From the IMG/VR virus record IMGVR_UViG_3300047195_000798: a DNA stretch of 64,000 nt; one strand, given 5' to 3'. This document shows, in pieces, positions 24,829 through 56,760 of this stretch. This DNA comes from an uncultured virus (IMG/VR IMGVR_UViG_3300047195_000798) (Duplodnaviria > Heunggongvirae > Uroviricota > Caudoviricetes). The position numbers and the translations under genes were made by a program. The notes beneath the pieces are model-generated. The model did not search any database, had not been told where the DNA came from, and saw only the letters and a program-made list of their open reading frames with translations. Position 1 is the stretch's first letter, and every line of letters starts with the position of its first letter.

Positions 24829-25068
24829 ATGGATGAAACTAAAAACATACATAAAATATATCTGAAACTAGGGGTAATCGTCAGTGGGACTGTTGACGAC
24901 ATTGAACGTTTTTTAGCAGACATCAACTCTCATAAAAATCTCAAAGTGATCTATACAAAAACATCTCCCTACAGATTGAGGATCGAGGAAGACATGCCAC
25001 AGGATTACTATCCTGATGACAAAAGTATTGCTGGAAAAGGAAACAAGAAGGAACGGGGGGTACGATAA
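24829..25068 (+). CDS. Small hypothetical protein heading the plus-strand glycan operon
   Basis: AGGAG RBS; upstream CATAGTTT direct repeats (24781, 24792). Confidence 0.6.
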   Translation: MDETKNIHKIYLKLGVIVSGTVDDIERFLADINSHKNLKVIYTKTSPYRLRIEEDMPQDYYPDDKSIAGKGNKKERGVR

Positions 25069-26054
25069 TTACCATATGTATAACGGGATCGGCGGGATTC
25101 ATCGGTTCACACTTAGCCAGAAAACTGGAAGAGAACATGAGAACCAGGTTAATCTTGACTGATAACTTTTCCAGGGGGAAGCAATCGTATTTAGATTATC
25201 TCGGAGTAAAGACGCATTGCGATGAACTGGATCTCAGAAACTACGACTCAGCCAAGATAATAACTAAGAACGCGGACATAGTTTATCATACGGCTTGCAG
25301 GATAGGCGGCATGCAGTTCTTGCATGGTTCTCCAGATGCAGAACTAAGGGCGTTGCAGGAAAACTTGATCATAGATACAAATGTATTTAGAGCATGCATC
25401 GAGAATAAGGTAAAGAAAATCATTTACACATCAAGCATATCGATATACAACACAACAAGGCAATTGGAGGATTATGCGGTGTTCAGAGAAGATGACTTCG
25501 AATCCGATAGGTACGAACCAGAAGGTGGATACGGGGCTAGCAAAGCAATGGCTGAAAAACAACTTAATTACATGTCGAAGATGGGGATACAGACCGGCAT
25601 CGCCCGCATTTTCAAATCGTATGGGCCGTGCGACGACCACAGCGAACAATCGGGGCAGGTGGTGTGTTCCCTGTTCAGGAAGGCTCTGACGCAGGATAAG
25701 CTCGTTGTTTGGGGCTCGGGCGAAGTGAAGAGATGCCTGCTTTATATAGACGATCTTATCGATGGGTTGATCAGATTGGCAAAATGGGACGGTTCGCTCA
25801 CCGTAAACCTGGGGGCCAGCAAGCCGACATCGATACGAACGCTCGCAGAAAAGGTAGCGGAGATGGTAGGAGAAACGACAGGAACGAAGATACCTGTCGT
25901 ATTTGATACATCGAAGCCGGAAGGCCCGATGAGCCGAATACCGGATCTGACGAAAGCGAAGGAGCTGCTCGGGTGGGAACCGACGACATCATTGAATGAA
26001 GGATTGAAAAAGACATATATTTTCATGAAAGGAGATGGAAAAAAAGGGGAGTAA
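25065..26054 (+). CDS. NAD-dependent epimerase/dehydratase (GDP-mannose 3,5-epimerase-like), non-AUG start
   Basis: ITGSAGFIGSHL lies upstream of the first ATG (25137); ACRIGGM; TSS; YGASK; VVWGSG. Confidence 0.9.
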   Translation: MITICITGSAGFIGSHLARKLEENMRTRLILTDNFSRGKQSYLDYLGVKTHCDELDLRNYDSAKIITKNADIVYHTACRIGGMQFLHGSPDAELRALQENLIIDTNVFRACIENKVKKIIYTSSISIYNTTRQLEDYAVFREDDFESDRYEPEGGYGASKAMAEKQLNYMSKMGIQTGIARIFKSYGPCDDHSEQSGQVVCSLFRKALTQDKLVVWGSGEVKRCLLYIDDLIDGLIRLAKWDGSLTVNLGASKPTSIRTLAEKVAEMVGETTGTKIPVVFDTSKPEGPMSRIPDLTKAKELLGWEPTTSLNEGLKKTYIFMKGDGKKGE

Positions 26055-26059
26055 GTCAA

Positions 26060-26650
26060 GTGCATGAAATAATCATCAACGAAAGGGCAACAGTATTGGA
26101 GAGGATGGCTGCTGCAGCAATCAATTCATTATCGGGGGCAACCATGCATCTCTTTCCGAACCTGTTTGTGCGCCCATCGACGTTGTTCGTGAAAGGATTG
26201 AACAGGATAAATCTGGTAGTTGTCGAAATAGGAACCGACAAAGGGTACAATGCCAAAACGATATTGGACAATCTCAATGTCAAGAGGATGTATCTGATCG
26301 ACCCGTATCTAGAGACCGGACTGCAGGGCTCAGATGTCGCAATGATGCTCGCAAAAAGGAGGCTCTATTATTATCGGAACAAGATACGGTTCGTAAAGGA
26401 GAAATCAGAGAACGCTATTGACCTCATTCCAAAAGGAATAGATTTCCTGTATATCGATGGGTATCATGCGAAGAGACAGGTAGCAAAGGAATTGCGGATG
26501 TTTTATCCGAAGATGAATCCGGGTGGAGTGATGGCGGGACATGATTTTGTTGCCACACACATAGATTTAGCTGAGGCAGTAATCGAGTTCAAACAAAAAT
26601 ACAATCTGAAATTGTACGGAAGGAGTTACGATTGGTGGTTTATCGTATAG
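26060..26650 (+). CDS. Class I SAM methyltransferase (Methyltransf_24-like), paralog 1
   Basis: VEIGTDKG; IDPY; DFLYIDGYH; GGVMAGHD; DWW. Confidence 0.85.
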   Translation: MHEIIINERATVLERMAAAAINSLSGATMHLFPNLFVRPSTLFVKGLNRINLVVVEIGTDKGYNAKTILDNLNVKRMYLIDPYLETGLQGSDVAMMLAKRRLYYYRNKIRFVKEKSENAIDLIPKGIDFLYIDGYHAKRQVAKELRMFYPKMNPGGVMAGHDFVATHIDLAEAVIEFKQKYNLKLYGRSYDWWFIV

Positions 26651-26677
26651 CGCATTGAAAGGAGAAGGGGAACGAAG

Positions 26678-27043
26678 ATGGAAAACAAGCAATGGAGTGA
26701 CCGTTCGATATTGAAGGACTATAGGAACACATGCAAGAACCATGAACACCAGATGGAAACGAACGAACTGACATTCTTCGGTTTCCCGGAACAGCCGGAC
26801 TTCGGCCACATAACGATAGACATCGAACCGAAAGAGAAGATGGTCGACCTGAAATCGGTGAAGAAGTATCTGTTGCAGTTCAGGAACATGGGGATTTCTT
26901 ACGAGAGGCTGTTGAATACAGTGTTCGAGGACTTCATAACGGTATTTGAGCCTGCGAATCTGACAATCATCTTAAAGATGAACCCGCGTGGCGGAATCGG
27001 TTCGACATTGAGAAAATCGACAAAGGACAAGGAATTGGAATGA
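26678..27043 (+). CDS. QueF-like T-fold protein lacking the catalytic Cys
   Basis: ELTFFGFPEQPDF...VDLKSVKKYL..FRN..ISYE...PRGGI; the canonical CPxTGQPDF cysteine is absent. Confidence 0.8.
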   Translation: MENKQWSDRSILKDYRNTCKNHEHQMETNELTFFGFPEQPDFGHITIDIEPKEKMVDLKSVKKYLLQFRNMGISYERLLNTVFEDFITVFEPANLTIILKMNPRGGIGSTLRKSTKDKELE

Positions 27044-27642
27044 CGTTGTTCGGAAAGATGTTCATCAACGCGATGCAGCTCGCATCAGGCCTTGCAGTGC
27101 ATATATTTCCAAGGCTGTACATTCGCCCTTCTACACAGTTCGTGAAGAAGCACACCAGGGGGATGATGCTAACGGTCGTCGAACTGGGGACGGACCGTGG
27201 TTACAATGCTCGTTCTATCCTCGACAATCTCAATGTTGAGAACATCTATCTCGTAGATCCATATTTGTCGAAAGAGAAGATAGGGAAGCATACGGGGTTC
27301 GGGTTTGTGAGAACCGGTTCGGAGCTGGCATTCAAAGAAGCGCAAAGGCAGGTGAAGAAACATAGTGAGAAGGTGCTTTTCATCAGGAAGTTATCGACAG
27401 AAGCAATCGACGAAATTCCTGACGATATCGACTTCCTTTACATTGACGCCGTCCATGAGAAAGAGTGGGTTGAAAAGGAATTGGAACTCTACTATCCAAA
27501 GATGAAAAAAGGTGGTGTAATTGGCGGGCATGATGCATATGCGGACTTCATCGGAGTTATGCAGGCGGCAATAGAATTCGCAAACAAGAAAGGATTGGAA
27601 CTTCAGGGAAAAGATGTCGATTGGTGGTTTGTTGTAAAATGA
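27040..27642 (+). CDS. Class I SAM methyltransferase (Methyltransf_24-like), paralog 2
   Basis: VELGTDRG; VDPY; DFLYIDAVH; GGVIGGHD; DWW. Confidence 0.85.
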   Translation: MTLFGKMFINAMQLASGLAVHIFPRLYIRPSTQFVKKHTRGMMLTVVELGTDRGYNARSILDNLNVENIYLVDPYLSKEKIGKHTGFGFVRTGSELAFKEAQRQVKKHSEKVLFIRKLSTEAIDEIPDDIDFLYIDAVHEKEWVEKELELYYPKMKKGGVIGGHDAYADFIGVMQAAIEFANKKGLELQGKDVDWWFVVK

Positions 27643-27787
27643 CAAGACTGTGCATAATACATAAGTGGGACAATGATGAACGAGTTTGGGACAACAAACG
27701 AAAGTGCAAAGTGTGTGGCAAGGTCCAGCAGTATAGACTTACGGGGAGTGAAGGAGATTTTGGCTGGGTAACTGTAAGAGGAAAAAA

Positions 27788-28675
27788 ATGCAAGTGACCG
27801 TCATCATCACTTCGTTCAACGACCTTCGCATTCTGAAGACGTTAGATTCTTTGTTGCAGCAGACGAGAAAACCAGACTTCGTTGTCATAGCCGACGGCGG
27901 CTCTTCGGAACATTTCAAAAGGGAAGTATGGGATTATTTGATGCCGCATAAGAACATCATGTTCTATCATCTTCCCGGGCGGTGTATTGATACGAGACGG
28001 AAGGTGATCGATCTATTGGTTCTCAGGTCAAACTCTCCATTCAAATCGGATATCCTGGCTTGGATAGATGCAGATGAAATAGCAATGGAAGAATGGCTGG
28101 GATTGTTGATAGCTCCGATTGAGGCCGGGGAGGTAGATTTCACTGGCGGGCCCTGGAAACCGACGAAGGAAAAATCGAAACCGGAGAAGATACTGAACGC
28201 CATCCAGACGAAGAACCAGGAGTTTGCTGCAATCGATCAGACGTACATGGCGATGGGGAACAGCGCATGGCATACGGACATATTCAGAAAGATCGGGAAC
28301 TTCGACGATTCATCAGATTCGCAGACCGCAGATCCTTTACTCGCAAAGGAAGGCATCGTGGCCGGTCATTATGTTTCGGAAGACTTCGATCTCAATATTA
28401 GGGCGAAGGCCGCAGGGTTCAGGAGCCGATACATTCCAGGGGCGATAGTCTATCACGATCAATCCCATGTGAATACCTATCGGAAGCTGACCAAGTATTT
28501 CTACAACAACTACGTGAGGGCGGGGATGGCCTATTTCAAGAACAAGAGTGGCATGGGAAAGTTCGTGAAAGCATCGAGGCAGCCGCTCGTCCATCCATAT
28601 GAAGGATTTCTCTTGATGTTGAAACCGGTGGCATTTGTAAACGCATGGAGGGAATACAATAAGCTTGTTAAGTAA
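27788..28675 (+). CDS. GT2-family glycosyltransferase
   Basis: VTVIITSFN; ADGGS; DAD; SEDFDL; VYH. Confidence 0.9.
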   Translation: MQVTVIITSFNDLRILKTLDSLLQQTRKPDFVVIADGGSSEHFKREVWDYLMPHKNIMFYHLPGRCIDTRRKVIDLLVLRSNSPFKSDILAWIDADEIAMEEWLGLLIAPIEAGEVDFTGGPWKPTKEKSKPEKILNAIQTKNQEFAAIDQTYMAMGNSAWHTDIFRKIGNFDDSSDSQTADPLLAKEGIVAGHYVSEDFDLNIRAKAAGFRSRYIPGAIVYHDQSHVNTYRKLTKYFYNNYVRAGMAYFKNKSGMGKFVKASRQPLVHPYEGFLLMLKPVAFVNAWREYNKLVK

Positions 28676-29228
28676 ATATTGGAAATACAATCGGCGGGTG
28701 TTCGACATCATGAACACCGCTCTCAACCTGTCGCCACGGCCTGCGACTCTGGCGATGAAGAGGACCGGTAAAAAGAACATCGTCGCGGTGGAGGTCGGAG
28801 TGTTCTATGGGGACAATGCCCGTTCGATTCTCAGGACACTCGACATAGAACATCTGTATCTGGTGGACCCATACAAGACGTATACATGCGGCGGGTTCGA
28901 AGTGAAGATGGACAGCAAGATACTGAAGGAAGCGAAGAGGAAGCTGAAACCGTGGGAAGACAAAATATCGTGGGTACATAAGTATTCAGACATAGCGATT
29001 TACGAAATACCGGATGCGGACTTCATCTATCTGGATGCGAACCACGATTACGAGTTCATAAAGGAAGATCTGCGGAGATATTACCACAAGATGAAGTTGG
29101 GTGGGATATTCGGGGGACATGATTTCAAAACGCATCATTTGGGGACGATACGCGCCGTCGTAGAATTCACGAACGAATATGGATTGAAACTACAGGCAGA
29201 ACCAGATGATTGGTTTGTAGAGGTCTGA
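28665..29228 (+). CDS. Class I SAM methyltransferase (Methyltransf_24-like), paralog 3
   Basis: VEVGVFYG; VDPY; DFIYLDANH; GGIFGGHD. Confidence 0.85.
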   Translation: MLSKYWKYNRRVFDIMNTALNLSPRPATLAMKRTGKKNIVAVEVGVFYGDNARSILRTLDIEHLYLVDPYKTYTCGGFEVKMDSKILKEAKRKLKPWEDKISWVHKYSDIAIYEIPDADFIYLDANHDYEFIKEDLRRYYHKMKLGGIFGGHDFKTHHLGTIRAVVEFTNEYGLKLQAEPDDWFVEV

Positions 29229-29515
29229 TGTGCAAAAAAAGAAGTTCGGTGAATTGTTTTACAACTGAAAGAGATCAAGAGACGTTCAGGGTTGACCCAT
29301 GTATACGACATTTCATAAGAATAATGCGTGACATAGGGTTCAAAACGGTGGGAGCTTGTTGCGGTCACGGAGTATATCCCTTGACGGTCATCTGCCAGAC
29401 GAGTGAAGGAAAATATTTTGAATTGATTTCCGGGATAGACATATCGCGGACGAGGAAGTTCTATAAGATGGATTCAAATGGATACTATTATATTCCGGAA
29501 TTGGTGAAACAATGA
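29228..29515 (+). CDS. Small phage-type protein with VDxCI...CCGHG motif
   Basis: VDPCIRHFI...TVGACCGHG. Confidence 0.6.
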   Translation: MCKKRSSVNCFTTERDQETFRVDPCIRHFIRIMRDIGFKTVGACCGHGVYPLTVICQTSEGKYFELISGIDISRTRKFYKMDSNGYYYIPELVKQ

Positions 29516-29838
29516 AAAAAAAAACTATATTGCTAATAGCAATCATGATGATGATATCTGGTTTAAACAGTTATCTCGTTTTTTCTTTTTTGCAAGATGA
29601 TTCTAATGGTTGCATTGGCGGGACGGTCGACGGTCATGGCTATATGAGATTAGCGTCATGGTATAATGATTCAGCAGGATATCATCTCAATTTTTCTGTC
29701 GATGGTTTCAATAACTATTACAAGAACTTCTCGCAAAGCAGAGTTGCAAATCTTGATCAATATGTGGGGCAGTATGTTGAGGTCGGATACAATTCTTATG
29801 ATGACCGTTTAAATTGGGTTCATAAATTGGAGGGTTAA
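29512..29838 (+). CDS. Membrane-anchored/secreted small protein
   Basis: N-terminal hydrophobic helix, three sequons (NDS, NFS, NFS). Confidence 0.6.
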   Translation: MKKKTILLIAIMMMISGLNSYLVFSFLQDDSNGCIGGTVDGHGYMRLASWYNDSAGYHLNFSVDGFNNYYKNFSQSRVANLDQYVGQYVEVGYNSYDDRLNWVHKLEG

Positions 29839-30809
29839 TGATACTAAAAAACCATGAAGGATTAGAAGAATTCAATATCCCTGAGGATTGGTATAAACAT
29901 CGGGAATCAGGGATATCCGCGGTATTAAGAATCGGGAATGAGGAGCGCTGGATTGGCCCATGCATTGAGAGTGCCCTGCCGTTCTTCGACGAGATGGTGA
30001 TAGGCATCGAATGCACGGATCGGACGAAAGAGATCATACAGACGTTCGATTCTCCAAAGATAAAGATGTTTGATTATCCATTCAAGCTCGGGCATTTCTA
30101 CGATCAAGTCTATCCGGATACGGTACATACGACCGCCTATTTCTGCAACTGGACGATGTCAAAGACGACGAAGCAGATCATCTCGAAATGGGACGGCGAC
30201 ATGGTGATGCTACCCGACTTCTACAAGGCGCATGATCTCATCATGAAGAAGAACGCAGTGCGCAGTTGCGGATACCAACCGGTGAGTCTTAAACCGTTCA
30301 CACTATCGAATGGCGACCCATATGCATCATATCAATTGCGCTTTTCACGAGTCCATAGTTTCATGTATTGGAATCTTTGTCCACTGAAGAACTGGCGCAT
30401 CGAGACTGCAGCAAAAGAGAAATATGAGACATTCACTTATTCGGAAGCAAGTCTAAAAAGAAGCCTGACGCCATTCATAAAACGGGAAGGTGTCCCGACG
30501 ATGGCATATCTCTACCGGCTCTATAACTTTCTTTTCAACAAGGACATCTACTATGGATCGAAGGTGCGTTACTTCCTGAAGAACCAGAGGGAATGCTACA
30601 AGAAGATGTTCGAGCCGACCTACGTCCACACGAACATGCTGAAGATCAAGAACAACGACATCCACGGGACGAGCAAGGAATGGAACGAAGCTGTAAAGAC
30701 AGACCCAAAATACAAGAGCTGGTTGGAACCAGGCATCGTATTATTGGAGGGGAGCGACATCAGATTGCCGGAGTGTATCTTCAAGTTACCGGAAGATTAT
30801 TTGAGGTGA
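29838..30809 (+). CDS. GT-A fold glycosyltransferase, CgtA-like, paralog 1
   Basis: GISAVLR..NEERWIGPCIES; YPF; YFCNWTMSKT; KWDGD (DxD). Confidence 0.75.
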   Translation: MILKNHEGLEEFNIPEDWYKHRESGISAVLRIGNEERWIGPCIESALPFFDEMVIGIECTDRTKEIIQTFDSPKIKMFDYPFKLGHFYDQVYPDTVHTTAYFCNWTMSKTTKQIISKWDGDMVMLPDFYKAHDLIMKKNAVRSCGYQPVSLKPFTLSNGDPYASYQLRFSRVHSFMYWNLCPLKNWRIETAAKEKYETFTYSEASLKRSLTPFIKREGVPTMAYLYRLYNFLFNKDIYYGSKVRYFLKNQRECYKKMFEPTYVHTNMLKIKNNDIHGTSKEWNEAVKTDPKYKSWLEPGIVLLEGSDIRLPECIFKLPEDYLR

Positions 30810-31135
30810 ATAAAATGGAATATGATATTTGGAAAAATAAGCACAAGATATTGAATAGAATATTGCGCTGGATGTTCTTAGCAGATGTTAACGAACAAGA
30901 TCTTCATTTGAGAGAAGGTTGGACAATAGATGATTATGTCAAGTACAGGATTTATGTTATCATAGTCTGTTCGATACTTGGTTTGATGGCATTGGGACTT
31001 GTATTAACTACAATTCTGTAGCGGAGGGAAAATGTATTCCGATGAATTTGGTTTTATATTGGAAACAAAAACGGAAGTAGTGCTATTTTGGAGTAGCATT
31101 GCGCTGTTATTGATTCTACTCTAAAGAGGGCATTT

Positions 31136-32026
31136 ATGAAAGTGATGCTGGAAAATCGAGAGGGCCATAAAGAATTCAATGTCCACCCCGATTGGTACAA
31201 AAATCGCAAGCCGGGAATCAGTGCGATGATCCGCTGCGGAAACGAAGAGAAATGGATAGTGCCATGCCTCGAAAGCATCATGCCGTTCTTCGATGAAGTC
31301 ATAGTGACCGTTGGTCCAGTGGGAACGTCGAGGGACGGGACACTTAACGTGCTTGCAGAATATCAGCAAGGATTGCCAGAGGGCTCCTATTTCTATCATT
31401 ACAAGGATCGGAGGAAATTGCTCGTCTTGGAATATCCATTTTCTTTGAGGGAAAAAGATCCGCCGCCGGACAGCGTAAATGACAAATCATATTATTACAA
31501 CTGGACGCTCTCGAAGACGACGCATCAGATTGTCGCAAAGTGGGACGTTGATATGCAGATGATAGATGTTCCGAGATTGTATGCCGCCGTGATACGGAAG
31601 AACATCGTGCGTTTGAGGGGATATAACATCGTCGAAACAGATCCATATTATCTTTCGAAAACAAATCCGATGGAGCACTACGAGCCACGGTTCATGCGGA
31701 TAAACAAGCACATGCACTATGTCCAGGCACCGAGTTACATGCCAAAGCCGGTTCATGGTCGTGAGCTATTCACGTATGATGCTGCATCATTGATACCGAA
31801 TCCAAAGCTATGGCATGCGACAGACATGCCGCTATGGCTGTATCTATACAGGGTTTATAATGCACTAACAAAAAAAGACCTGTACTTCAAAACGCCGGCA
31901 TTCATCCATACGAAATATCTAAAGCTAAAGGAGAATCCAGAGGCATCGTGGGCGCCGAACTGGAAAGAAGAAATCGAAAAGGGGGAAAAATTATATATTG
32001 AAACAAATGAAAAAGATCATAGATAA
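31136..32026 (+). CDS. GT-A fold glycosyltransferase, CgtA-like, paralog 2
   Basis: GISAMIR..NEEKWI.PCLES; YYNWTLSKT; KWDVD. Confidence 0.75.
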   Translation: MKVMLENREGHKEFNVHPDWYKNRKPGISAMIRCGNEEKWIVPCLESIMPFFDEVIVTVGPVGTSRDGTLNVLAEYQQGLPEGSYFYHYKDRRKLLVLEYPFSLREKDPPPDSVNDKSYYYNWTLSKTTHQIVAKWDVDMQMIDVPRLYAAVIRKNIVRLRGYNIVETDPYYLSKTNPMEHYEPRFMRINKHMHYVQAPSYMPKPVHGRELFTYDAASLIPNPKLWHATDMPLWLYLYRVYNALTKKDLYFKTPAFIHTKYLKLKENPEASWAPNWKEEIEKGEKLYIETNEKDHR

Positions 32027-32900
32027 AATAGAGATGTTCATCTGGTATTGGCGAGCAACGGGAAACATCGAGACGATGGTATGGATCACCATACTTGCGA
32101 TAATCCGGTTGCCGAGGAAATACGCGCCCGGCATAGACCGAGCGAAGCTGTTGAGCGACATCACGACGAAGATATGCCGAAAGGAAACAATCATGAGGAC
32201 AAGATACGGGACGTTCTACGGGAATCTATCGATGGTTGCGAATATCAGCTCGAATTACGAAAAGAACATTCACCGGCTGCTCGTCGAAAATTATTATCGC
32301 AATAAAGACAGAAAGCGGATATTCATCAACATAGGTGCGCACGTAGGAAAATACCTGATAGACCTGACGAAGAACTACGGCTACGAATCATACGGATTCG
32401 AACCGACACCAACGACGGCCAAATATCTAAAGATCAATACAATACTATCTGGTGTCGAAGACAGAACAAAGGTATTCAATTTCGGGCTTGGACACAAAGA
32501 AGATGTTCTGGATTTCTACCAATCGACCGTGAGTGGATTCAATACATTCTGCCCTGACGAACAGATACTCGGCATGGAAAAGATACAGGCACCGGTAAAG
32601 AAGTTTGATGATCTTGATCTAGGAATAACTGAAGAAGACGTCTCCCTGATACTTATCGATGCCGAGGGGTTCGAATATAATGTATTGAGGGGGATGAAGC
32701 AATTCCTAAGCAGATTAGTTGACGTGGACATTATTGTAGAGATCCACGAGAATAGCAGGAACAAGAGATATATAACAAGATTGATGAAGGCATTGGGATA
32801 TGAAATACGCCCGATAGATACAGCGAACTGGCTGTATAGAAAAGAGCGAAAGGAGAGAAACAATGAAATTGACAGAGGATATGTTATCGTTGGGTATTGA
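31998..32900 (+). CDS. FkbM-family methyltransferase
   Basis: INIGAHVG; FEP; LIDAEGFEYNVLRG; IVEIH. Confidence 0.9.
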   Translation: MKQMKKIIDKIEMFIWYWRATGNIETMVWITILAIIRLPRKYAPGIDRAKLLSDITTKICRKETIMRTRYGTFYGNLSMVANISSNYEKNIHRLLVENYYRNKDRKRIFINIGAHVGKYLIDLTKNYGYESYGFEPTPTTAKYLKINTILSGVEDRTKVFNFGLGHKEDVLDFYQSTVSGFNTFCPDEQILGMEKIQAPVKKFDDLDLGITEEDVSLILIDAEGFEYNVLRGMKQFLSRLVDVDIIVEIHENSRNKRYITRLMKALGYEIRPIDTANWLYRKERKERNNEIDRGYVIVGY

Positions 32901-34176: not shown

Positions 34177-34325
34177 AGAAAAAACTGTGCCCACTCTGCA
34201 CAAAAACATTTCAAAGTATAAGAGACTGGGAAGGTCATCTCAGAAAGATACACGGGTTGAGTGAAGCGCACATAAAACTTTATTCGGAAGAGCAAAAAAC
34301 GGAGTTTGCAAAGAATATTGAATGA
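34173..34325 (+). CDS. C2H2 zinc-finger protein (50 aa, TTG start)
   Basis: LKKKLCPLCTKTFQSIRDWEGHLRKIH; below the ORF-track cutoff. Confidence 0.6.
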   Translation: MKKKLCPLCTKTFQSIRDWEGHLRKIHGLSEAHIKLYSEEQKTEFAKNIE

Positions 34326-35949: not shown

Positions 35950-35951
35950 TC

Positions 35952-36323: not shown

Positions 36324-36504
36324 GAAAGACCATTCAAGGAAGGAAGGTAAGATGATAAATGAATTGCATTGTATTGGATTGATTAATAAAATAGATGACG
36401 TAGCCAAAAATGAGGGAATGGAATACTACCATAGAATTGTTGTTATAAAGCAGTTGATAGAAGATTATAGGAAAAAGGAATGAAATTGAGAATCAGGAGG
36501 CACA

Positions 36505-48391: not shown

Positions 48392-48410
48392 GTTTTCCCT
48401 CTTACAAGAT

Positions 48411-49454: not shown

Positions 49455-50011
49455 CCGTTCAATTCAAAAGTTATGTAGTGACTCAGAAGAGAATGGAATG
49501 ATTCTACAATCGGAGTGGAATCTGAAGGGATCACTATGCAAACATCGCACATATCTTTCATGGCCCCTCCATCAAAACCAGAGATGCCTATCGTCTTGCA
49601 TCCTCTACTCTTCGCCAGCTGGATTGCTCCGATGAGGTTCTGGGACCACAGCCCAGAATGATATTCTCCCTTTCCACCATGGACGCTGAATGTGACGAGC
49701 ACATCTCCTTTTTCCATGAACCTCTCAAGCTGCTCTGTAAAAAGTTTTGCCCATCCTTCGTCGTTTGTAATGGCCGTCATGAGTGAAGCATTATCACAGA
49801 GACAAACCGAACGAAGGCCACCGAGCTTGAAGAAATCGCTAGATGAATGGGAAGCAGTTCCAGCGCTACCGCCAATCCCAGCAAAATAGACATGCTTCTT
49901 CTCATCTCGTGCTGTCTTGAGAATTTTCATTATCTCTTGAATGCTTTTGTCATAATCTGACAGTTTCAAAGAAACTCGGCTGCTTTCGTTCATATAGTCC
50001 TTTAGATTCAT
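49439..50011 (-). CDS. gmhA: SIS-domain phosphosugar isomerase (GmhA-like)
   Basis: GIGGSAGTASH; TAITND; GDVLVTFSVHGG; GFDGG; ESFH; start MNLKDY. Confidence 0.85.
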   Translation of the reverse strand: MNLKDYMNESSRVSLKLSDYDKSIQEIMKILKTARDEKKHVYFAGIGGSAGTASHSSSDFFKLGGLRSVCLCDNASLMTAITNDEGWAKLFTEQLERFMEKGDVLVTFSVHGGKGEYHSGLWSQNLIGAIQLAKSRGCKTIGISGFDGGAMKDMCDVCIVIPSDSTPIVESFHSLLSHYITFELNGWKWK

Positions 50012-50027
50012 TTTTTTCCTTCCTATT

Positions 50028-50174
50028 TTATTTTGCAAATATCCCGGCTTTTGCATTGACAGGAACAACCTGTGCCTGCTTTCCGCATGTCGGACAATTC
50101 GTATCTTCGGCACCGCCTCTATAATAACCGCCAGTGCCAGATTCATCGCAAGATTTACAGTAATATCTAATCAT
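50028..50174 (-). CDS. Small zinc-ribbon protein
   Basis: MIRYYCKSC...CPTCG. Confidence 0.6.
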   Translation of the reverse strand: MIRYYCKSCDESGTGGYYRGGAEDTNCPTCGKQAQVVPVNAKAGIFAK

Positions 50175-51189
50175 TGTCGATCTTCTCCGCCACCAAGGTT
50201 GAAACGCCTTCCTGATCAAAGGCAAAAGGAATATTGATGAGCCCTTTCTTGGTCATAGCATCAACGAAATGCCATTGCTCGGTTGGAGTCTCGCAGGGAT
50301 GATAGAACATGAAGAACCCCCCTCCACCACCAGAGCCCATGATCTTCCCGCCTAATGCTCCATTGTCGATAGCGAGGTCATACCAGTCATCTATCTGTGG
50401 GCTTGTCGAATGTGGCGAATAGTGCTTCTTGATTTTCCAATGCTCGTCCAGAAGATAGCCAAACTTATCGAGCTCAAGATGCTCAAAAGCGTCTTTCGTC
50501 TTCAGTCCAATCTCCTTTATCTTGTGAAGCGATTGAGTCTTGTCCATGTTGTCCTTCTTTAGATTCTCATCTAGATCTTTCAGGGCGGACGATGCAGTGC
50601 CCTGTCGCATCTGTCCAGTGAAGAAAAGAAAGAGCTTCTGTTCAAGTTCTCGGTAAAGCAGGTCCTCATTTGTCAGGGGCCGGACATCGACGAAACCGCC
50701 TTTGCGGAAAGTGTATGCATTTATCGCTCCAAAGGCTGTAGCATACTTGTCCTGCTTTCCCTCGTGCTCTTTCAGCACCTCAATTTCGATGTGGCACGCC
50801 ATCTCTGCAAGCTGCCGTTTTGAGGCAGGTTTCCCGTACTTGTAGAGATAAAGCGTATTGAGCAGAGCAACAAGAAATGCACCAGATGAACCAAGTCCTG
50901 TTCCGCTAGGAACATCTGCGATAGAATGAATCTCGATGCCGGACAGTATGTTCATCTGTTTCAATGCCTCTCTGAAAAGATTGTGTTTGATATCATCGAC
51001 GGTATTGACCGTCTCTCGTTCCGCATAGCTCAATTTAATCTGTCCGGTGAACAGCTTGTTTGCGGCGACGATGCAGTATTTATTGATGGCACCAGAAATG
51101 AGGAATCCTTCATATTTTTCATAATAGGATGGAAGATCTGTTCCACCCCCTCCTAGAGGTATCCTGCACGGACTTCGCGTAATATACAT
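50167..51189 (-). CDS. hddA: GHMP-family sugar kinase (HddA-like heptose/octose phosphate 1-kinase)
   Basis: RIPLGGGGTDLPSYY; PSGTGLGSSG; GKQD; GGKIMGSGGGGF. Confidence 0.9.
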   Translation of the reverse strand: MYITRSPCRIPLGGGGTDLPSYYEKYEGFLISGAINKYCIVAANKLFTGQIKLSYAERETVNTVDDIKHNLFREALKQMNILSGIEIHSIADVPSGTGLGSSGAFLVALLNTLYLYKYGKPASKRQLAEMACHIEIEVLKEHEGKQDKYATAFGAINAYTFRKGGFVDVRPLTNEDLLYRELEQKLFLFFTGQMRQGTASSALKDLDENLKKDNMDKTQSLHKIKEIGLKTKDAFEHLELDKFGYLLDEHWKIKKHYSPHSTSPQIDDWYDLAIDNGALGGKIMGSGGGGGFFMFYHPCETPTEQWHFVDAMTKKGLINIPFAFDQEGVSTLVAEKIDND

Positions 51190-51247
51190 TTTCAACACTC
51201 CTTTAGGCTGTCTCGCCCGCATTTAGGACAATTTCCCATGCAGACCT

Positions 51248-52591
51248 TCAGCTCTTCCGCTGTGAGTTTATGGCCACAGCTCCCACATTCGTATTGCATC
51301 CATTCCCTCCATCAATAATATATGTAACGGCATTGAGAAGATTGTCGAAAGTGTAATCCGGTTTGCTGTCTTTCCACTCGCTGTCTCCTTGGAGCAAAGC
51401 GACTGTTTTGACACCGGCTGCTTTTCCACATTCGATATCTCGCCAGGTGTCTCCAATCATGAACGATTTAGATGGATCAATGTTGTATCTGACAAAAGCT
51501 TCTCTTATGAGACCAGTCTTCGGCTTGCGGCAGTCGCAGTCGATTTTGTAAAGTGGATTCTCATCAGGATGTCCTTTCTCGGGATGGTGCGGGCAGAAGA
51601 AGATGTCATCGAGCTTTGCCCCGCCTCGTCCAAGAAGTGTTTCCATCTTTTTATGGATGTTCGCAAGATCTTTCATCGAAAAGAAGCTCTTGGCGATGCC
51701 TGGCTGGTTTGTGATGACGATGGCAAGATATCCTGAATTATTTATTTTTTTGATTGCATCGATGGTATCTGGGAACAGTTCAAAATCTTCAGGCCTTGTT
51801 ATGTCGCGTCCTTCGCCTTTCGTACCATCGCATCTTCGGATGATCACACCATCGCGGTCCAGGAAGATCGCTTTGCTTTGCGTCTCGTAGTTCATTATGC
51901 GGCCTGCAGCATAGTCTTTGTTGACCTCATCGAGCCGTTCCGGAGTCCCGATGTCGCGCATATATTCAGCGGTTCGATATCCATAGACTTGTTTCTTCTG
52001 GATGAGTGTCGGCAGAATATCTTTAGCGAAATCGGAAAAGATTCCGCTCTTGATATATTGAAAGACTTTTGGCGTAAGAATGTAAACGCTGATGTTCGTG
52101 AGATTGCGATAATATTTGTTATTGTCATGTGGCTTTGGGAAGACTTCGACGATGCGTTCGTTCTCATCGATATCAATGAGGTCGCTATCATCCATGTGTG
52201 TAGTTGGATGAATTCCGATGGTGCAGATGCTTTGCTTGTTGCAATGGAGCGAAAACATGCGTTCGAGCGAGATGTTATGCATCTTGTCCCCATAAACGAC
52301 GACGAATGTATCGTCAAGCATCGGTTCAGCTGATTTCAATGCACCAGCCGTCCCAAGCGGGAACGTCTCCTGCAAAACGATGACATTGTCATAATGATTG
52401 CTTTTAACGAATCTGTCGATTTGTTTTGACAGATGTCCCGCTAGAACAACGATATCAGTGATCCCATACTTTTCGAACCACTCTATCTGATGTTGTAAGA
52501 GGGATTTCTCTCCGACCTTTAGCAGTGCTTTCGGAACCGAGATATCGCCCATCCGGGTCCCTTTGCCACCGCAAACTATGGCTCCTTTCAT
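51248..52591 (-). CDS. Bifunctional sugar-1-phosphate nucleotidyltransferase (HddC-like) / GmhB-like HAD phosphatase
   Basis: GGKGTR..PK; PLGTAG; DIGTPERL; IFLDRDG; TNQPG; CPHHP...CDCRKP; GDTWRD. Confidence 0.92.
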   Translation of the reverse strand: MKGAIVCGGKGTRMGDISVPKALLKVGEKSLLQHQIEWFEKYGITDIVVLAGHLSKQIDRFVKSNHYDNVIVLQETFPLGTAGALKSAEPMLDDTFVVVYGDKMHNISLERMFSLHCNKQSICTIGIHPTTHMDDSDLIDIDENERIVEVFPKPHDNNKYYRNLTNISVYILTPKVFQYIKSGIFSDFAKDILPTLIQKKQVYGYRTAEYMRDIGTPERLDEVNKDYAAGRIMNYETQSKAIFLDRDGVIIRRCDGTKGEGRDITRPEDFELFPDTIDAIKKINNSGYLAIVITNQPGIAKSFFSMKDLANIHKKMETLLGRGGAKLDDIFFCPHHPEKGHPDENPLYKIDCDCRKPKTGLIREAFVRYNIDPSKSFMIGDTWRDIECGKAAGVKTVALLQGDSEWKDSKPDYTFDNLLNAVTYIIDGGNGCNTNVGAVAINSQRKS

Positions 52592-53055
52592 GTTTCTGAC
52601 AATGTCAATAAATCCGGATCTTCCACCGGTTTGGATTTGGTCTTGTATTTTACTTCGTAATAGACAATAAACGTCTTGAAAAGTTTAGGCAAGACGAGGA
52701 CAAGAAAAAAGCCAGTGAGCCCCAATCCCGCAATCAGACCAAGGCCGATGTGGGTCGGTATGAGTTTCATGACGGCCCAACTGCTGAAGAGAAAGATCGC
52801 AGCTCCAACGAGGGAAGATGCAATTAATCTTCCGATGGTGGAAACGATGATGTGGCGTTCTTTCTCTTTCAGCACTTTAGCAATGCGGTCGCATTCTTCA
52901 TCCGTTGTGGATGAATGCCCATTCACGCAAACGTTCTGTGTCACTTCTAATTTGATGACATTATAGAACGTAAGCGTCTCTCTTTCCTCTTTCATTGCCT
53001 CATTGCATGTTGGGCAGTGTGTGATTTCCCTTTCCCCTTCCATAGTGAGCGTCAT
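52588..53055 (-). CDS. YgiT-like zinc finger plus two TM helices
   Basis: CPTC...CVNGH; two hydrophobic segments. Confidence 0.6.
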   Translation of the reverse strand: MTLTMEGEREITHCPTCNEAMKEERETLTFYNVIKLEVTQNVCVNGHSSTTDEECDRIAKVLKEKERHIIVSTIGRLIASSLVGAAIFLFSSWAVMKLIPTHIGLGLIAGLGLTGFFLVLVLPKLFKTFIVYYEVKYKTKSKPVEDPDLLTLSET

Positions 53056-53084
53056 TTTTTCTCTCCTGCAAATTGATTATTCTG

Positions 53085-53849
53085 TTACTTTTTTTTCTCC
53101 TCCCTGCAAAATTCTTCCCAGGCTTTTTCAAAGTCCTTGAGTGCTTCTTCCGTCTTTGAGTGGTATGGCATCTGGTCAAGAATGGAAGTCGGTATAGTGA
53201 TGATATCAGGCTCAACAGTCAAGATGTCTTCAATATCTTGGGGAGACCGAATGCTTCCAATAATCAGTTCAGTGTCACTGTTCTCAAGGATGCCCATTGT
53301 AATATTGATTGTAGTAAGAGCATAGTCGGTTGCAGCAGCAAGGCTTTTTTTATCGAGTTTAGGATTGCCTGGTATCCAGTTGGGAGAAAGTTGAGAATAT
53401 TTCCAATCAATCATCCGATTGTAAAAGAGACTGACATAGGTTGCTTTGGCACATTTGACGAGGTAGGTCTGATTCGTAGTCATGCAGGCAGTGACATTCG
53501 TCTTAATGCCTTTCTCTCTAAGTATTGCAACAGCACGAAGCCCATCGCCATTGCCGAGCATAGGCACTTTGACAACAATATTTTTGTAAGCATGCTTGGC
53601 ACCATTCATAATCCAATGATCATATTGCTCTGCTGCATCCAAGATGCCTTGATAGTTATTTGGTCCTTCAAGGCTAACTGGCATCGGATAGACGAGCTCA
53701 AGGATTTCTTTCGCTCGTTGTTCAAAGTTGCATCCTCTGGCCTTATCGAGGAAAATCTTAGGATTCGTAGTAATTCCGGAAAAAATATCCCATTCAAGAA
53801 TCCTTTTTATTTCCTCCAAATTTGCTGTGTCCAAAAATAGTTTAGTAAT
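53085..53849 (-). CDS. tal: Transaldolase family protein (TalC/FSA type), apparent ATT start
   Basis: KLFLDTAN; GITTNP; VSLE; VVKVP (Schiff-base Lys); TNVT; YVSLFYNR; GSIR. GAGGTGA RBS 4 nt upstream of ATT. Confidence 0.88.
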   Translation of the reverse strand: MTKLFLDTANLEEIKRILEWDIFSGITTNPKIFLDKARGCNFEQRAKEILELVYPMPVSLEGPNNYQGILDAAEQYDHWIMNGAKHAYKNIVVKVPMLGNGDGLRAVAILREKGIKTNVTACMTTNQTYLVKCAKATYVSLFYNRMIDWKYSQLSPNWIPGNPKLDKKSLAAATDYALTTINITMGILENSDTELIIGSIRSPQDIEDILTVEPDIITIPTSILDQMPYHSKTEEALKDFEKAWEEFCREEKKK

Positions 53850-54608
53850 ATTATCACCTCTGACCAATAATTTTTGAAAATACGCCTTCCATTGTTCCCT
53901 GTTGGCATTTACTTCAACATTGCAAGGGCGACAAAGAGAAATGAGATTTCGAGAATCGCAGTTCAATGGATTGTAGTCTATGTGATGAATGTCCAGTCGC
54001 TTGAAAAATCCAGCAAGTTCTCTCTGAGACAACTTGCATTTTCTGCAAATATAATTATCCCGTGATCTAATCTGCTCTTTCAATTGTTCATCGAACTCAA
54101 TTGGATATTTCGGAGGACCGCCATGCCACAATCCACTAATTACTTTATTTCGATATTCAGGATCTTGCCATTTCAATTTGACTGCATCACTTTGTTTTTT
54201 ACGAGTTATTTCAGAGTATTTTCTGCCACGATAAACTTGACATGATTCTTTATGCATCTGCACATATTTGGGATCGCTATATTTTGCCAGCATTGTAACC
54301 TTCTTTTTATTTCTAAGTTCCAATGACTGCATCTTTCCGAGATGTGCAATCCTGTCTTTTTCTTTTGTTTTTATAGAATGATGTCGCCCATAAAATGGAT
54401 TGTTAGTTCCAGAATATCTTTTACTAAGATTACATTTTAATCCAAGCCTATATGCTTTAGCAATAATGCTACCCCGTTTATGATTGGAAAGCAGCAGAGG
54501 TATATTTGAACCAACTTCAGGATATTGTTCTCTGAGTATGGCTATCTCACTATTATCCCAAGGGCCGCCTATGTTTTTCCCCTCCAACTTTCTCTTCCTT
54601 GTTTTCAT
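53850..54608 (-). mobile_element. NUMOD3/HNH homing-endonuclease-like ORF, reading in frame into transaldolase
   Basis: NNPFYGRHHS..TKEK; RGRKYSEITRKKQS; IRSRDNYICRKC...LDIHHIDYNPLNCDSRNLISLCRPCN; no stop codon before tal; AT-richer than its flanks. Confidence 0.85.
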
Positions 54609-54855
54609 TTCTTGGTCGTTTTGATGCATCCCCCAAGAACAATTGTTTTCGACTCGCATATAGAAGCAATCGCCCAATCTGGGCATAACGAGAATCTGGA
54701 AAAGTTTCCAATATCTTTTTACAGCAATCGCGGCAAATCCCAAATTCCTGGAGCAGCATCGTCTCATCGTCATCTTTGTCGCAAATTATGCAAAAGCAAT
54801 ATTGATATTCTGCCCCTTCAGGCTTGAACAACCTTAATCTTTCATCTGCTGCCAT
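54553..54855 (-). CDS. Cysteine-rich zinc-finger protein
   Basis: CFCIIC...CRDCC...CFYMR region; coupled in operon. Confidence 0.45.
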   Translation of the reverse strand: MAADERLRLFKPEGAEYQYCFCIICDKDDDETMLLQEFGICRDCCKKILETFPDSRYAQIGRLLLYASRKQLFLGDASKRPRNENKEEKVGGEKHRRPLG

Positions 54856-55613
54856 TGTACTTTCTCTCCAGGTCTCCGGTAGAATCTTCCGAAGATATAT
54901 CCTAATGCCCCAAATCCGAGACGAAGCAAGTTCTTGAATGAGAGGCCATGCTGGTGTTTTCCTGAAAGCTCACGGTGGATGTTGTTGAGTTCGTATCGCG
55001 CTTCCCCGTTCCAGAATGCCTGTTTGAGAAACCCCTTCTTGGTCGTTCGCTGGTGGTGGATGAGCTTCATCTTCGGGTTGTAGACGATGGCATATCCATT
55101 GAGGACGCACCGGTAGTTCAGTTCGATGTCTTCGGCCTGACCTTGCGTCTCATCAAAGAGCCCTACCTTATCAAATACCTTTCTTTTGTAAGCGATGTTG
55201 CAGCAAGGATATGTGATATCCTGCCCAGTGACAAAAACGGAAACACGCGGTAGCGACGTGTCATTGGGAATGCATGCATAGCCAGCGACAATGTCGGCAT
55301 ACTGCATCGTGTTCACAAGCTCTTCGTACCAGCCATCGAGGAGTTCGGTATCGGCATCAAGTTCGGCAACGATGTCTCCTGTGGAATTCCAGAACCCGAT
55401 GTTCCTTGCCTTGCCTTTCGATACAATTTCTTTCAAAGGAACCACGGTAACATTGTATTCTTTCAGTATGACTAGTGTATTGTCCCTGCTGCACGAATCA
55501 ACAAAGATGAACTCGGCCTTTTTATCAAGGCTAAGTCTCTTTATAGATTCGCATAGGACGCGCACGTCCCTTTCGCTGTTGATCGTTGGAATGATTACAG
55601 ACACCTTCTTCAT
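54834..55613 (-). CDS. GT2-family glycosyltransferase
   Basis: VSVIIPT; VDSCSRDNT; ARNIG; DAD; EDIEL. Confidence 0.9.
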   Translation of the reverse strand: MKKVSVIIPTINSERDVRVLCESIKRLSLDKKAEFIFVDSCSRDNTLVILKEYNVTVVPLKEIVSKGKARNIGFWNSTGDIVAELDADTELLDGWYEELVNTMQYADIVAGYACIPNDTSLPRVSVFVTGQDITYPCCNIAYKRKVFDKVGLFDETQGQAEDIELNYRCVLNGYAIVYNPKMKLIHHQRTTKKGFLKQAFWNGEARYELNNIHRELSGKHQHGLSFKNLLRLGFGALGYIFGRFYRRPGEKVQWQQMKD

Positions 55614-56581
55614 ACTATCTTTATTTTTTCCCTTTCGCAAATGTCATATACGGTTCGGTGGATTCCATCAAAGCAGTCATAGGTCGGGCTCCATCCTGCA
55701 TTCATTGCTTTATCGATGGAAAGGACGGTATACGGCGTATCGCCGTTCCATCCTCTGTCTCCACCAGTGAACGTGTAAACCGGTTTAACACCAAGATCCT
55801 CGCAGATGGTATCCGCAATCCTACGGACGGTTATTGTAGTGGTATTCCCAAGATTGTAGATGTTGACAGGATTGTCTCCGTCTGATTTTGATATCTCGAC
55901 AAAACCGCGGATGCAGTCAGTAACATCAAAAAGGCTTTTCTTCTGCCTTCCATCGCCAAGTATTACCAGTTCTTTAGGGTTCATCTGAAGTTTGTGGATG
56001 AAATCCCAGATGACGCCGCGCTGCATGTTCTTTCCGACAACATTGGCGAAACGGTAGATCCTCGCACGCATGCCGTAAAGACTACAGTACGCATTAATGA
56101 AAGCCTCGCAGGCAAGTTTGCTGGCACCGTATTGAGAAATAGGACGGATGTCCGCCATATCTTCCGGTGTTGGAATGATAGGTGCAATTCCATAGAGGCT
56201 TGAGGTAGATGAAAATACAAGATTCTTTATATCGCGCTTTCTCATGAATTCTAATATAGTATGTGTTCCAACTGTATTTTCTTGGATATCAGCATTCGTG
56301 TTTTTCAGGCTCGCCCGGATGTCCGCAGCTGCGGCAAGATGGTAGATGGTATCGACATTGGTCAGCTTGCCCCCGTGGTCTTCAATGTTCTTGATGTCAT
56401 CCCATATCATAGTGAACTGTTTTGATTTCAGGCATTGCGAAAGGAACGGCTTTCGGGATTTATCCCGGTCAATTCCAATAAGTTCGATTTCATTACCATG
56501 TACGAGATTCTCGCCAAGCAGATGCTCACAGAGGTTCGATCCGATAAAACCTGCATTTCCCGTAATCAAAATGTGTTTCAT
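55610..56581 (-). CDS. NAD-dependent epimerase/dehydratase (UDP-glucose 4-epimerase-like)
   Basis: TGNAGFIGS; HLAA; FSSTS; YGASK; RFANVVG; GDRGWNGD. Confidence 0.92.
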   Translation of the reverse strand: MKHILITGNAGFIGSNLCEHLLGENLVHGNEIELIGIDRDKSRKPFLSQCLKSKQFTMIWDDIKNIEDHGGKLTNVDTIYHLAAAADIRASLKNTNADIQENTVGTHTILEFMRKRDIKNLVFSSTSSLYGIAPIIPTPEDMADIRPISQYGASKLACEAFINAYCSLYGMRARIYRFANVVGKNMQRGVIWDFIHKLQMNPKELVILGDGRQKKSLFDVTDCIRGFVEISKSDGDNPVNIYNLGNTTTITVRRIADTICEDLGVKPVYTFTGGDRGWNGDTPYTVLSIDKAMNAGWSPTYDCFDGIHRTVYDICEREKIKIV

Positions 56582-56760
56582 TTTTTCTTAGCTCCTAAAT
56601 CTTCCAAGATGGGTGTGATGACTATCTTCTCCATATCTTCGGAGAAGCGGACATTAACCTCGCTGAAACTCTTTCCTTTTCCTTTCCAATGGTCAAAAAA
56701 ATCCTTTGATATCACAACAGCCTTAGAGGTTCCGCAACTGTTTATTTTTTGGATAGTCAT
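56578..56760 (-). CDS. AbrB/MazE-like swapped-hairpin transcription regulator
   Basis: IQKINSCGTSKAVVISK...VNVRFS...IVITP; first gene of the minus-strand operon. Confidence 0.7.
   Translation of the reverse strand: MTIQKINSCGTSKAVVISKDFFDHWKGKGKSFSEVNVRFSEDMEKIVITPILEDLGAKKK

Follow-up and report, generated by a model that had tools for sequence, protein, structure and literature searches.

An AglB-type oligosaccharyltransferase and a nearly complete N-glycan gene set on candidate mobile DNA of uncultured sediment Thermoplasmatota

The N-linked glycans of archaea decorate S-layers, pili and archaella, and also serve viruses as receptors. In Haloferax volcanii the AglB pathway is constituted by AglJ, AglG, AglI, AglE, AglD, AglM, AglF, AglP and AglR. 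In bacteria, seroconverting phages modify the O-antigen by means of Gtr-type modules of two or three genes. Here we describe a 64,000-nucleotide stretch of the IMG/VR record IMGVR_UViG_3300047195_000798, hereinafter the window, which represents the visible 64 kb of a 99,923-bp contig (~36 kb lie beyond sight) and has a G+C content of ~44%. Its positions 24829-56760 are occupied by an island of two convergent blocks of glycan-related genes, which includes a gene for an oligosaccharyltransferase of the AglB/STT3 family (GT66). The observations detailed below support the location of this island on mobile or extrachromosomal-looking DNA rather than on a core chromosome, and we consider it probable that the window derives from a mobile or extrachromosomal element of ~100 kb from uncultured sediment Thermoplasmatota, with a self-contained N-glycan module.

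A Methanosarcina-associated orc-type plasmid, P2, has been described, in the part of the preprint available, as carrying its own copy of AglB/STT3 distinct from the chromosomal one, and a plasmid-borne AglB in Methanosarcina is to that extent already in print (bioRxiv 10.64898/2026.10.06.756670). The paper on Borgs describes multicopy dolichyl-phosphate-mannose synthases, and a term search of it found no occurrence of AglB, STT3 or oligosaccharyl- (PMC12660748). The accessible part of a paper on Lake Cadagno mentions viruses and plasmids of Thermoplasmatota and makes no mention there of glycosylation (PMC13502194). A full-text literature search, within a limited library, recovered no paper describing a whole N-glycosylation pathway together with its transferase on a prokaryotic virus or plasmid.

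The window AglB and its relatives

The AglB gene (45080-48433, minus strand) encodes a protein of 1117 amino acids (aa) with 12 hydrophobic segments in a hydropathy scan, which matches PF02516 across residues 85-478 (E 1.6e-16; 61.3 bits against a cut-off of 24.5). The WWDYG motif is found at residues 586-590, within the segment ISWWDYGFQ (584-592), while D90, the D214-H-D216 motif and a TIAE motif (E400) align opposite the matching motifs of AglB-L from A. fulgidus (3WAJ). The full-length AglB with an intact WWDYG proposed in the original prediction is hence borne out by both the Pfam match and the motif. The WWDYG signature, the acidic residues of the first external loop, the D-x-D and the TIxE motifs are all invariant across an 8-member clade of close relatives. 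The protein itself contains 21 N-x-S/T sequons, 20 of which lie in its C-terminal extracellular beta-sandwich part.

A search among 5.8 billion proteins recovered as the closest relatives seven proteins with 61-71% identity, all from metagenome sources and encoded on contigs of 3.6-32 kb, after which the identity drops to 44% or less. Of 401 sampled genomes of the phylum, 255 contained an AglB match, the best with 45-49% identity and none reaching 50%. Searches of metagenome and genome collections with an alignment of the clade returned, among the matches listed, mostly proteins of 23-41% identity, with only that of contig L001 being close. The nearest cellular AglBs, again among the matches listed, are labelled Thermoplasmata, Thermoplasmatales or Thermoplasmatota, and the class that holds them, represented by 197 genomes, was taken as the candidate host class.

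Phylogenetic trees were constructed with FastTree (84 rows) and IQ-TREE under LG+G4 (48 rows), with seven Thermoplasmata AglBs as the root. In both trees the genome-derived AglBs (15/15) form one clade with an SH-aLRT support of 95, and the window AglB belongs to a clade of 8 rows, supported at 100, that lies outside it; this phylogenetic test against Thermoplasmatota copies had been proposed in the original prediction. The window clade further groups with the AglB of contig L038 and with four proteins (P0010-P0013) as a 13-row group, and the AglBs of contigs L045, L047 and L048 constitute a separate basal clade (support 100), likewise outside the genome-derived clade. As judged from these sequence relationships, the view that the window AglB represents a distinct non-genomic lineage related to the Thermoplasmatota AglBs is supported.

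On contig L001, genes for a transaldolase, an unknown open reading frame (ORF), an HddC/GmhB protein, a GHMP kinase, a SIS protein and AglB (71% identical to that of the window) are arranged in the same order as in the window. The 37-kb contig L038 encodes an AglB with 39% identity to that of the window and has in common with it three backbone genes, those for the proteins encoded at 63221 (57-60% identical), at 12492 (37%) and, in part, at 59664, in addition to GT2, epimerase and methyltransferase genes. A different glycan set, with NeuB, cytidylyltransferases, an aminotransferase and a QueF-like gene, is found on L045 (a 116.6-kb contig) and L047, where a same-strand module of exonuclease, phrog_16 helicase, primase-like and ERCC4 nuclease genes immediately precedes AglB. 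Together with the distribution of the 63221 family (see below), these contexts point to families of ~100-kb elements outside binned genomes that repeatedly carry their own AglB. L045, L047 and L048 constitute a second family of one-strand elements, with a basal AglB lineage and a nonulosonic-acid-type glycan set (NeuB, CMP-transferases).

DNA near-identical to the window was detected in a freshwater-sediment sequencing run (X1) at a word depth of 216-277 across positions 44001-64000; this run comprises 1.8 billion letters and may be the source of the element, which ranks there with the most abundant sequences of the sediment. A contig of X1 extends ~20.8 kb beyond the end of the window. In the sediment runs X2 and X4 (99% alike) and X3 (90-95%), which come from two further studies and cover the window in part only, the island and the right backbone are covered at low depth.

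Gene content of the glycan island

The window contains 108 ORFs of at least 40 aa in a greedy non-overlapping set, with 73/108 on the plus strand. Genes from position 1 to 38.3 kb are almost wholly on the plus strand, those from 56,760 down to 38,294 on the minus strand, and those from 57 to 64 kb again on the plus strand. The plus-strand block of the island (24829-38285) meets the minus-strand block (56760 to 38294) across a gap of 8 bases, a layout that confirms the two convergent operons (~32 kb) of the original prediction. Sequence profile scans covered 89 window ORFs with Pfam, 30 with NCBIfam and 83 with PHROG, and the gene content reported earlier is confirmed by them: Pfam bears out the Wzx flippase, two GT2 and one GT4 glycosyltransferases, six methyltransferases, the sulfotransferase and two epimerases of the short-chain dehydrogenase/reductase (SDR) family. 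The flippase, the elongating transferases and the sugar-nucleotide supply are thus all encoded together with AglB.

The minus-strand block ends with the putative Wzx/MOP flippase (38294-39802), a protein of 502 aa with 13 hydrophobic segments that matches Polysacc_synt_3 (E 3e-21) and Polysacc_synt (E 2e-18) and would have an AglR-like role. Next to it Pfam recognized a sulfotransferase (39803-40639), a Methyltransf_24 protein (40636-41337) and a short-chain dehydrogenase (41265-42011), followed by a nucleoside diphosphate (NDP)-sugar dehydrogenase (41995-43332; TIGR03026, 229 bits against a cut-off of 189.8) and two adjacent GT-A-like transferases (43329-44225 and 44179-45126) that are 48% identical to each other. 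On the other side of AglB lie genes for a MocA oxidoreductase by Pfam (48411-49454) and, by NCBIfam matches, a GmhA-like isomerase (49439-50146), an HddA-like kinase (50167-51222; E 1.4e-44) and an HddC-like nucleotidyltransferase fused to a GmhB-like phosphatase (51248-52591). Beyond these are a 155-aa membrane ORF (52588-53055), a gene whose product, by the Pfam and NCBIfam scans, combines an HNH/NUMOD3 domain with a transaldolase in one reading frame (53085-54773), and, by Pfam, a GT2 (54834-55640) and an SDR dehydratase/epimerase (55610-56581), all on the minus strand.

The nucleotide-sugar pathway claimed in the original prediction is present, and NCBIfam narrows it to a heptose type, so that the GmhA-, HddA-, GmhB- and HddC-like genes together with the transaldolase read as a probable pathway for NDP-D-glycero-D-manno-heptose. 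The assignment is only at the family level because each match scores below its equivalog cut-off (76 of 209 bits for GmhA, 153 of 600 for HddA, 153 of 178 for GmhB and 70 of 300 for HddC). AglM- and AglF-like NCBIfam matches are also present among the nucleotide-sugar enzymes of the island. Homing endonucleases have invaded this heptose operon: L001 has LAGLIDADG and free-standing HNH genes inserted in it (L001:9-875, L001:3499-4335) in the place of the HNH/NUMOD3 fusion of the window. In run X1 a lower-depth variant omits positions 53441-54593, that is most of the HNH part and the start of the transaldolase part, a pattern that fits a mobile endonuclease insertion.

In the plus-strand block Pfam recovered an SDR reductase/epimerase (25137-26054), three Methyltransf_24 proteins (26060-26650, 27040-27642, 28665-29228; paralogs of that at 40636-41337), a GT2 (27788-28675), an FkbM methyltransferase (31998-32900), a Methyltransf_23 protein (34569-35477) and a GT4-type transferase with a Glycos_transf_1 domain (36834-37985). 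Also encoded in this block are a ParB-like protein (32863-34176) with a ParB/RepB/Spo0J domain (TIGR00180, 73.4 bits against a cut-off of 58.45), an archaeal pilin (36505-36831; PF07790, E 4e-10) and, as revealed by a paralogy comparison, two further GT-A-like transferases (29838-30809 and 31136-32026). A QueF-like, i.e. preQ1-synthase-like, protein scores 81 bits against a cut-off of 87 (26678-27043). Similar genes are found inside the glycan clusters of two unrelated elements, namely the window and L045 (L045:15700-16041), and this shared setting suggests a role in sugar modification rather than in queuosine synthesis.

The four GT-A-like transferases of the two blocks are true paralogs with 31-48% identity and an invariant W-D-x-D motif. 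Pfam finds in them only a weak GT2 match, and a profile of the four recovered 8 matches at E <=1 in the PDB, all of them GT-A/GT2-like, with GmaR as the best (E 2e-6). The original prediction had termed them CgtA-like; the four paralogs are real, but no CgtA is found among the profile matches and the likeness is to GmaR instead. An AlphaFold model of these proteins had a pLDDT of 36.3 and was too poor to use. The tiny zinc-finger ORFs interleaved with the island were likewise described earlier as phage-like. Small Cys-rich ORFs do exist (27621, 29210, 34173), but the qualifier is unsupported, since none of the three (0/3) matches any PHROG family.

Several secreted or anchored proteins encoded in the same window as AglB are enriched in sequons, which supports them as candidate substrates. 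Observed sequon counts were compared with those of 2000 composition-matched shuffles of each sequence. A secreted cohesin-domain protein of 488 aa (23261-24727, plus strand) has 20 sequons against 8.2 +/- 2.5 expected, and 0/2000 shuffles reach 20. Similarly, a 154-aa protein with an N-terminal hydrophobic segment (58100-58564, plus strand) has 7 against 1.5, a count again reached by 0/2000 shuffles. Four sequon-rich proteins with a C-terminal hydrophobic anchor are encoded on the plus strand at 23-1144, 1144-1896, 1893-2543 and 2180-3208, the last three being paralogs of one another; here the excess is weaker, with the observed counts being reached by 8 to 36 of the 2000 shuffles. The candidate substrates named in the original prediction, i.e. 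the PF07790 pilin, three membrane paralogs, the cohesin protein with its 20 sequons and the sequon-rich anchored proteins, are accordingly all found in the window.

Backbone, host and nature of the element

The remaining 32 kb outside the glycan blocks consist mainly of orphan ORFs, many of them tiny, and in the left flank (1-17.4 kb) just 3/29 ORFs pass a curated Pfam cut-off. The 64-kb window contains no tRNA and no Rfam family at gathering score, and no ribosomal, RNA-polymerase or other core family was detected among the 89 Pfam-scanned ORFs. The flanks of orphan ORFs without housekeeping operons noted in the original prediction are in this way borne out, and the ribosomal-protein genes it had proposed to look for were not found in the 64-kb window. 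No inverted repeats bounding the minus-strand block were found, and no RNA holder is listed for the stretch.

A replication-type backbone gene of the window encodes an archaeal-type small-subunit AAA+ module of replication factor C (RFC; 62133-62810, plus strand, 225 aa). Its profile matches in the PDB are strongest to 1IQP (E 7e-46), followed by the bacterial gamma/tau subunits (1e-19) and T4 gp44 (3e-10); it also matches the PHROG clamp loader (E 5e-48) and is 34% identical to the cognate proteins of the haloarchaeal tailed viruses HVTV-1 and HCTV-1. The ORF ends after the lid domain, without a collar, and is followed by a separate 127-aa ORF with its own GGAGG (62133-63117 for the pair); a frameshift was considered and rejected upon inspection of the reading frames. 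Besides this module, no Orc/Cdc6, Rep, MCM, primase or polymerase family was recovered in the window scans, and no ParA was found in the window next to the ParB-like protein.

Downstream of RFC lies a gene for a backbone protein whose C-terminal region has a C-x3-C-x2-C motif (63221-64000, plus strand). None of its 23 homologs comes from an NCBI source; the contigs that encode them reach 65, 92 and 107 kb (106,975 bp), and in the candidate host class it was found in 0/197 genomes. The backbone also has two pairs of orphan paralogs, 10670-10978 with 12259-12516 (51%) and 17426-17797 with 60018-60338 (45%), one of which spans the glycan island. The 243-aa product of 58923-59654 (plus strand) is cytoplasmic, and repeated units in it hold five CxxCH motifs. 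A multihaem cytochrome was rejected for it because a signal peptide is lacking and the paired CxxCH units resemble zinc-ribbon (Lar-like) and endonuclease VII PHROGs; zinc-ribbon repeats are more likely, with the cytochrome Pfam matches arising from the motif only.

The original prediction spoke of a large Thermoplasmatota virus or plasmid with its own glycosylation. The mobile or extrachromosomal character is supported, but virus status is not shown, inasmuch as none of the 83 PHROG-scanned ORFs (0/83) matches a capsid, portal, terminase or tail family, capsid and terminase being the families it had suggested searching for. A rival to be weighed is nevertheless that the contig belongs to a large tailed or enveloped archaeal virus, which would glycosylate the proteins of its own virion or convert the surface of the host and would have its structural genes in the unseen part of the contig. 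Consistent with it are the ~100-kb size class and RFC small subunit reminiscent of HVTV-1 and HCTV-1, the homing endonucleases, the small orphan genes all in one direction, PHROG matches in 14/83 ORFs, the very high depth in run X1, and an ORF that falls nearest to lambda-Ea47-like, mostly viral clusters of the Atlas (score 0.90; the scores of an Atlas search for 57028-57921 were all <=0.81). A profile of the 63221 family additionally recovered homologs of 33-39% identity in four viral records, one of which is a complete genome of 175 kb bearing terminal repeats; homologs at 33% are found in this 175-kb virus and in a provirus record (L212, L213). Yet these four records contain no AglB, and in the three read whole no further protein in common with the window was found (121 ORF translations against the viral loci), so that the 175-kb virus has just one protein in common with it. 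Moreover, a search of 50,697 phage and virus records detected no AglB, and that of 72,556 plasmids just one, on a 578-kb Haloferax replicon. Five scans of a viral contig collection (with AglB, RFC, the 63221 pair, the L045/L047 helicase and a CxxCxxCC pair) yielded no relative, and by exact-pattern scans the contigs of the window, L038 and L045 are absent from that collection. On present evidence a virus is hence less likely than not, and a plasmid or other extrachromosomal element has only slightly more weight.

Alternatively, the island could be a hypervariable glycosylation island or an integrated element in the chromosome of a Thermoplasmatota archaeon whose island fails to bin, with the AglB being a second, chromosomal paralog. 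Islands of surface-glycan genes often vary between strains and tend to escape binning. The lack of a replication initiator in the window would agree with this explanation, as would the occurrence of homologs of its AsnRS-like, TrmB-like, 134-aa membrane and zinc-ribbon proteins in genomes of the candidate host class. A further point in its favor is a 28-base stretch (3284-3311, plus strand) that matches at 26/28 positions the 3' part of a near-invariant ~80-base element of the host class (per-genome E-value ~0.005), and which is possibly the remnant of an attachment site. This ~80-base element, for which neither Rfam nor the tRNA scan gave a match, was found in some 35 of the 197 genomes. Its fold is that of a long hairpin, and it might represent a hitherto unknown small RNA; the seven copies compared (L185-L191) are almost identical and so offer no covariation. 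Against a chromosomal location, however, the complete host element is absent from the window, there is no housekeeping gene, tRNA or rRNA over 64 kb, no integrase was found in the window, and genes for ParB and RFC are present. The backbone family, furthermore, is found only on unbinned contigs of up to ~107 kb and in 0/197 class genomes. We therefore regard a chromosomal island as unlikely, and favor a mobile or extrachromosomal element.

Within 1-20 kb of the window, three genes have DNA matches in the genomes of that class. The TrmB-like gene has 68% nucleotide and 49-55% protein identity to two class genomes (an AlphaFold model of the 403-aa protein, with a pLDDT of 48.9, was unusable). 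The second gene encodes a truncated AsnRS-like catalytic core without the anticodon-binding domain, asparagine-synthetase-A-like (8469-9464, plus strand), which is 67-68% identical to genes in 3/197 class genomes, in one case among ordinary metabolic genes of the chromosome. The third is a 44-codon zinc-ribbon ORF with a double CxxC (5422-5556, plus strand; the greedy ORF set called the opposite strand here), with 77-84% nucleotide identity in two genomes (G360, G300). The pilin at 36505 is of the archaeal type. A bacterial host is thus unlikely, and a bacterial element with a borrowed archaeal-type AglB, for which one might cite the AglB relative P0010 (44%) that is labelled Atribacterota in a public bin, has very little probability: the pilin is an archaeal type IV pilin, RFC is far nearer to the archaeal than to the bacterial proteins (see above), the closest matches of the AsnRS-like and TrmB-like genes lie in Thermoplasmatota genomes, and the nearest cellular AglBs are all from Thermoplasmatota.

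With respect to its dependence on the host, the original prediction had called the glycosylation system near-autonomous while noting that a priming glycosyltransferase and a synthase for 3'-phosphoadenosine-5'-phosphosulfate (PAPS) were lacking. Indeed, neither a PF00953-type priming transferase nor a PAPS-synthesis domain is found among the 89 ORFs scanned, so that the pathway is nearly complete but would draw its PAPS from the host and lacks an AglH-type primer. APS kinase is present above cut-off in 175/197 genomes of the candidate host class, and PAPS for the sulfotransferase can therefore be supplied by the host. The absence of an AglH-type primer is uninformative, as PF00953 was found in just 4/31 class genomes sampled, not those with the closest AglBs; priming in the candidate host lineage is probably carried out by a GT2. 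One of the island GT2s may perform this role, although both are devoid of hydrophobic segments and their sole match to a polyprenyl-phosphate transferase in the PDB (ArnC type) is weak (E 4e-4).

Several points weigh against the interpretation that we favor. Housekeeping genes, an integrase or chromosomal flanks could sit in the remaining ~36 kb of the contig, and absence from binned genomes is equally expected of a hypervariable chromosomal island. The window scans recovered no gene for a replication initiator, ParA, capsid, portal, terminase or conjugation. Links through CRISPR spacers were not obtained: 20 short matches were seen in class genomes, 0/20 of them within repeat arrays, and when the region of 56.8-64 kb was searched in a second round no match exceeded 93% identity, the sensitivity of the spacer search being low because only two candidates were scored per genome. 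Fast evolution on a mobile element could partly explain the separation of the window AglB in the trees, the 13-row group that joins the window clade and L038 has a support of just 84, and an element-like context was seen for the window, L001, L038, L045, L047 and L048, not for the P-numbered proteins. To these is to be added the family-level, sub-equivalog scoring of every predicted heptose-pathway enzyme.

Predicted pathway and comparison with known systems

The gene content, the catalytic motifs, the separate position of the AglB in the trees, the sequon enrichment and the recurrence on related contigs are all observed. Taken together, the gene content of the island allows a pathway to be proposed, in which we infer the identity of the sugar, the order of the steps, the targets and the benefit. 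The transaldolase would provide sedoheptulose-7-phosphate, which the GmhA-, HddA-, GmhB- and HddC-like enzymes might then convert to NDP-heptose, with SDR, MocA and NDP-sugar dehydrogenase enzymes potentially remodelling the sugars. Up to seven glycosyltransferases could assemble an oligosaccharide on dolichol phosphate, to be decorated by the six methyltransferases and, using host PAPS, by the sulfotransferase. The Wzx-type protein would flip the decorated glycan across the membrane, and the AglB of the element would transfer it to N-x-S/T sites of its own cohesin protein, membrane paralogs and pilin, and probably also of host surface proteins. The predicted outcome is an element-specific glycan coat on the carrying cell or particle, which might be of benefit through receptor masking, exclusion or adhesion.

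A more far-reaching interpretation, to which we would currently give less than even weight, is that a lineage of ~100-kb viruses or virus-like elements of sediment Thermoplasmatota already had its own AglB before those of the host class diversified and has retained it, and that a complete element-encoded pathway modifies the surface proteins of both element and host with an N-glycan that is heptose-based, methylated and sulfated. If so, this would be the first known case of a prokaryotic mobile element that conducts N-glycosylation from end to end, and would offer a way to re-dress the surface of the host. An element that brings both its own transferase and its own glycan would make archaeal surface identity a transferable trait, with a bearing on resistance to viruses, on adhesion and on the diversity of strains in sediments. 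The island would also make available a compact set of genes with which the synthesis of a methylated, sulfated and heptose-containing N-glycan of archaea could be tested, along with a lineage of AglB whose donor or acceptor preference may be different.

The island builds on two known themes, namely the archaeal agl clusters and the conversion of surface glycans by mobile elements. As in the agl cluster of Haloferax volcanii, aglB is found among glycosyltransferase, methyltransferase and nucleotide-sugar genes with a Wzx-type flippase, and the logic of transferring a lipid-linked glycan to N-x-S/T would be the same. It differs from those clusters in being located on element-like DNA devoid of housekeeping genes, in its probable basis on heptose with six methyltransferases and a sulfotransferase, and in the position of its AglB outside the genome-derived clade. 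Bacterial pathways for GDP-D-glycero-alpha-D-manno-heptose comprise GmhA, HddA, GmhB and HddC and are accompanied by dehydratases, reductases and methyltransferases that modify the heptose. The likeness of the island to them extends to four collinear family-level matches and to adjacent SDR dehydratase/reductase and O-methyltransferase genes. In contrast to those pathways, the window proteins fall short of the equivalog scores, HddC is fused to GmhB, a transaldolase is included, and the product would feed an archaeal N-glycan rather than a capsule or an S-layer O-glycan.

The tailed viruses HVTV-1, HCTV-1 and HCTV-5 (102-103 kb) resemble the element in their size class and in an RFC small-subunit gene (34%), but differ from it in that no AglB was detected in the 50,697 phage and virus records and that no common structural genes are seen. 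The seroconverting phages provide an analogous case of a mobile element that employs a flippase and lipid-linked sugars to alter the surface glycan of its host, plausibly thereby blocking superinfection; in place of the small Gtr modules, however, the window has ~30 genes, including the oligosaccharyltransferase itself. The plasmid P2 of Methanosarcina, as far as the available part of its description goes, is again an archaeal extrachromosomal element with a second AglB, for which a role at the cell surface has been proposed (10.64898/2026.10.06.756670). In that part P2 is described with AglB and a disaggregatase-related protein only and with no glycan-building pathway (10.64898/2026.10.06.756670), and it differs further from the window in the phylum of its host and in its orc replication protein, a counterpart of which is not seen in the window.

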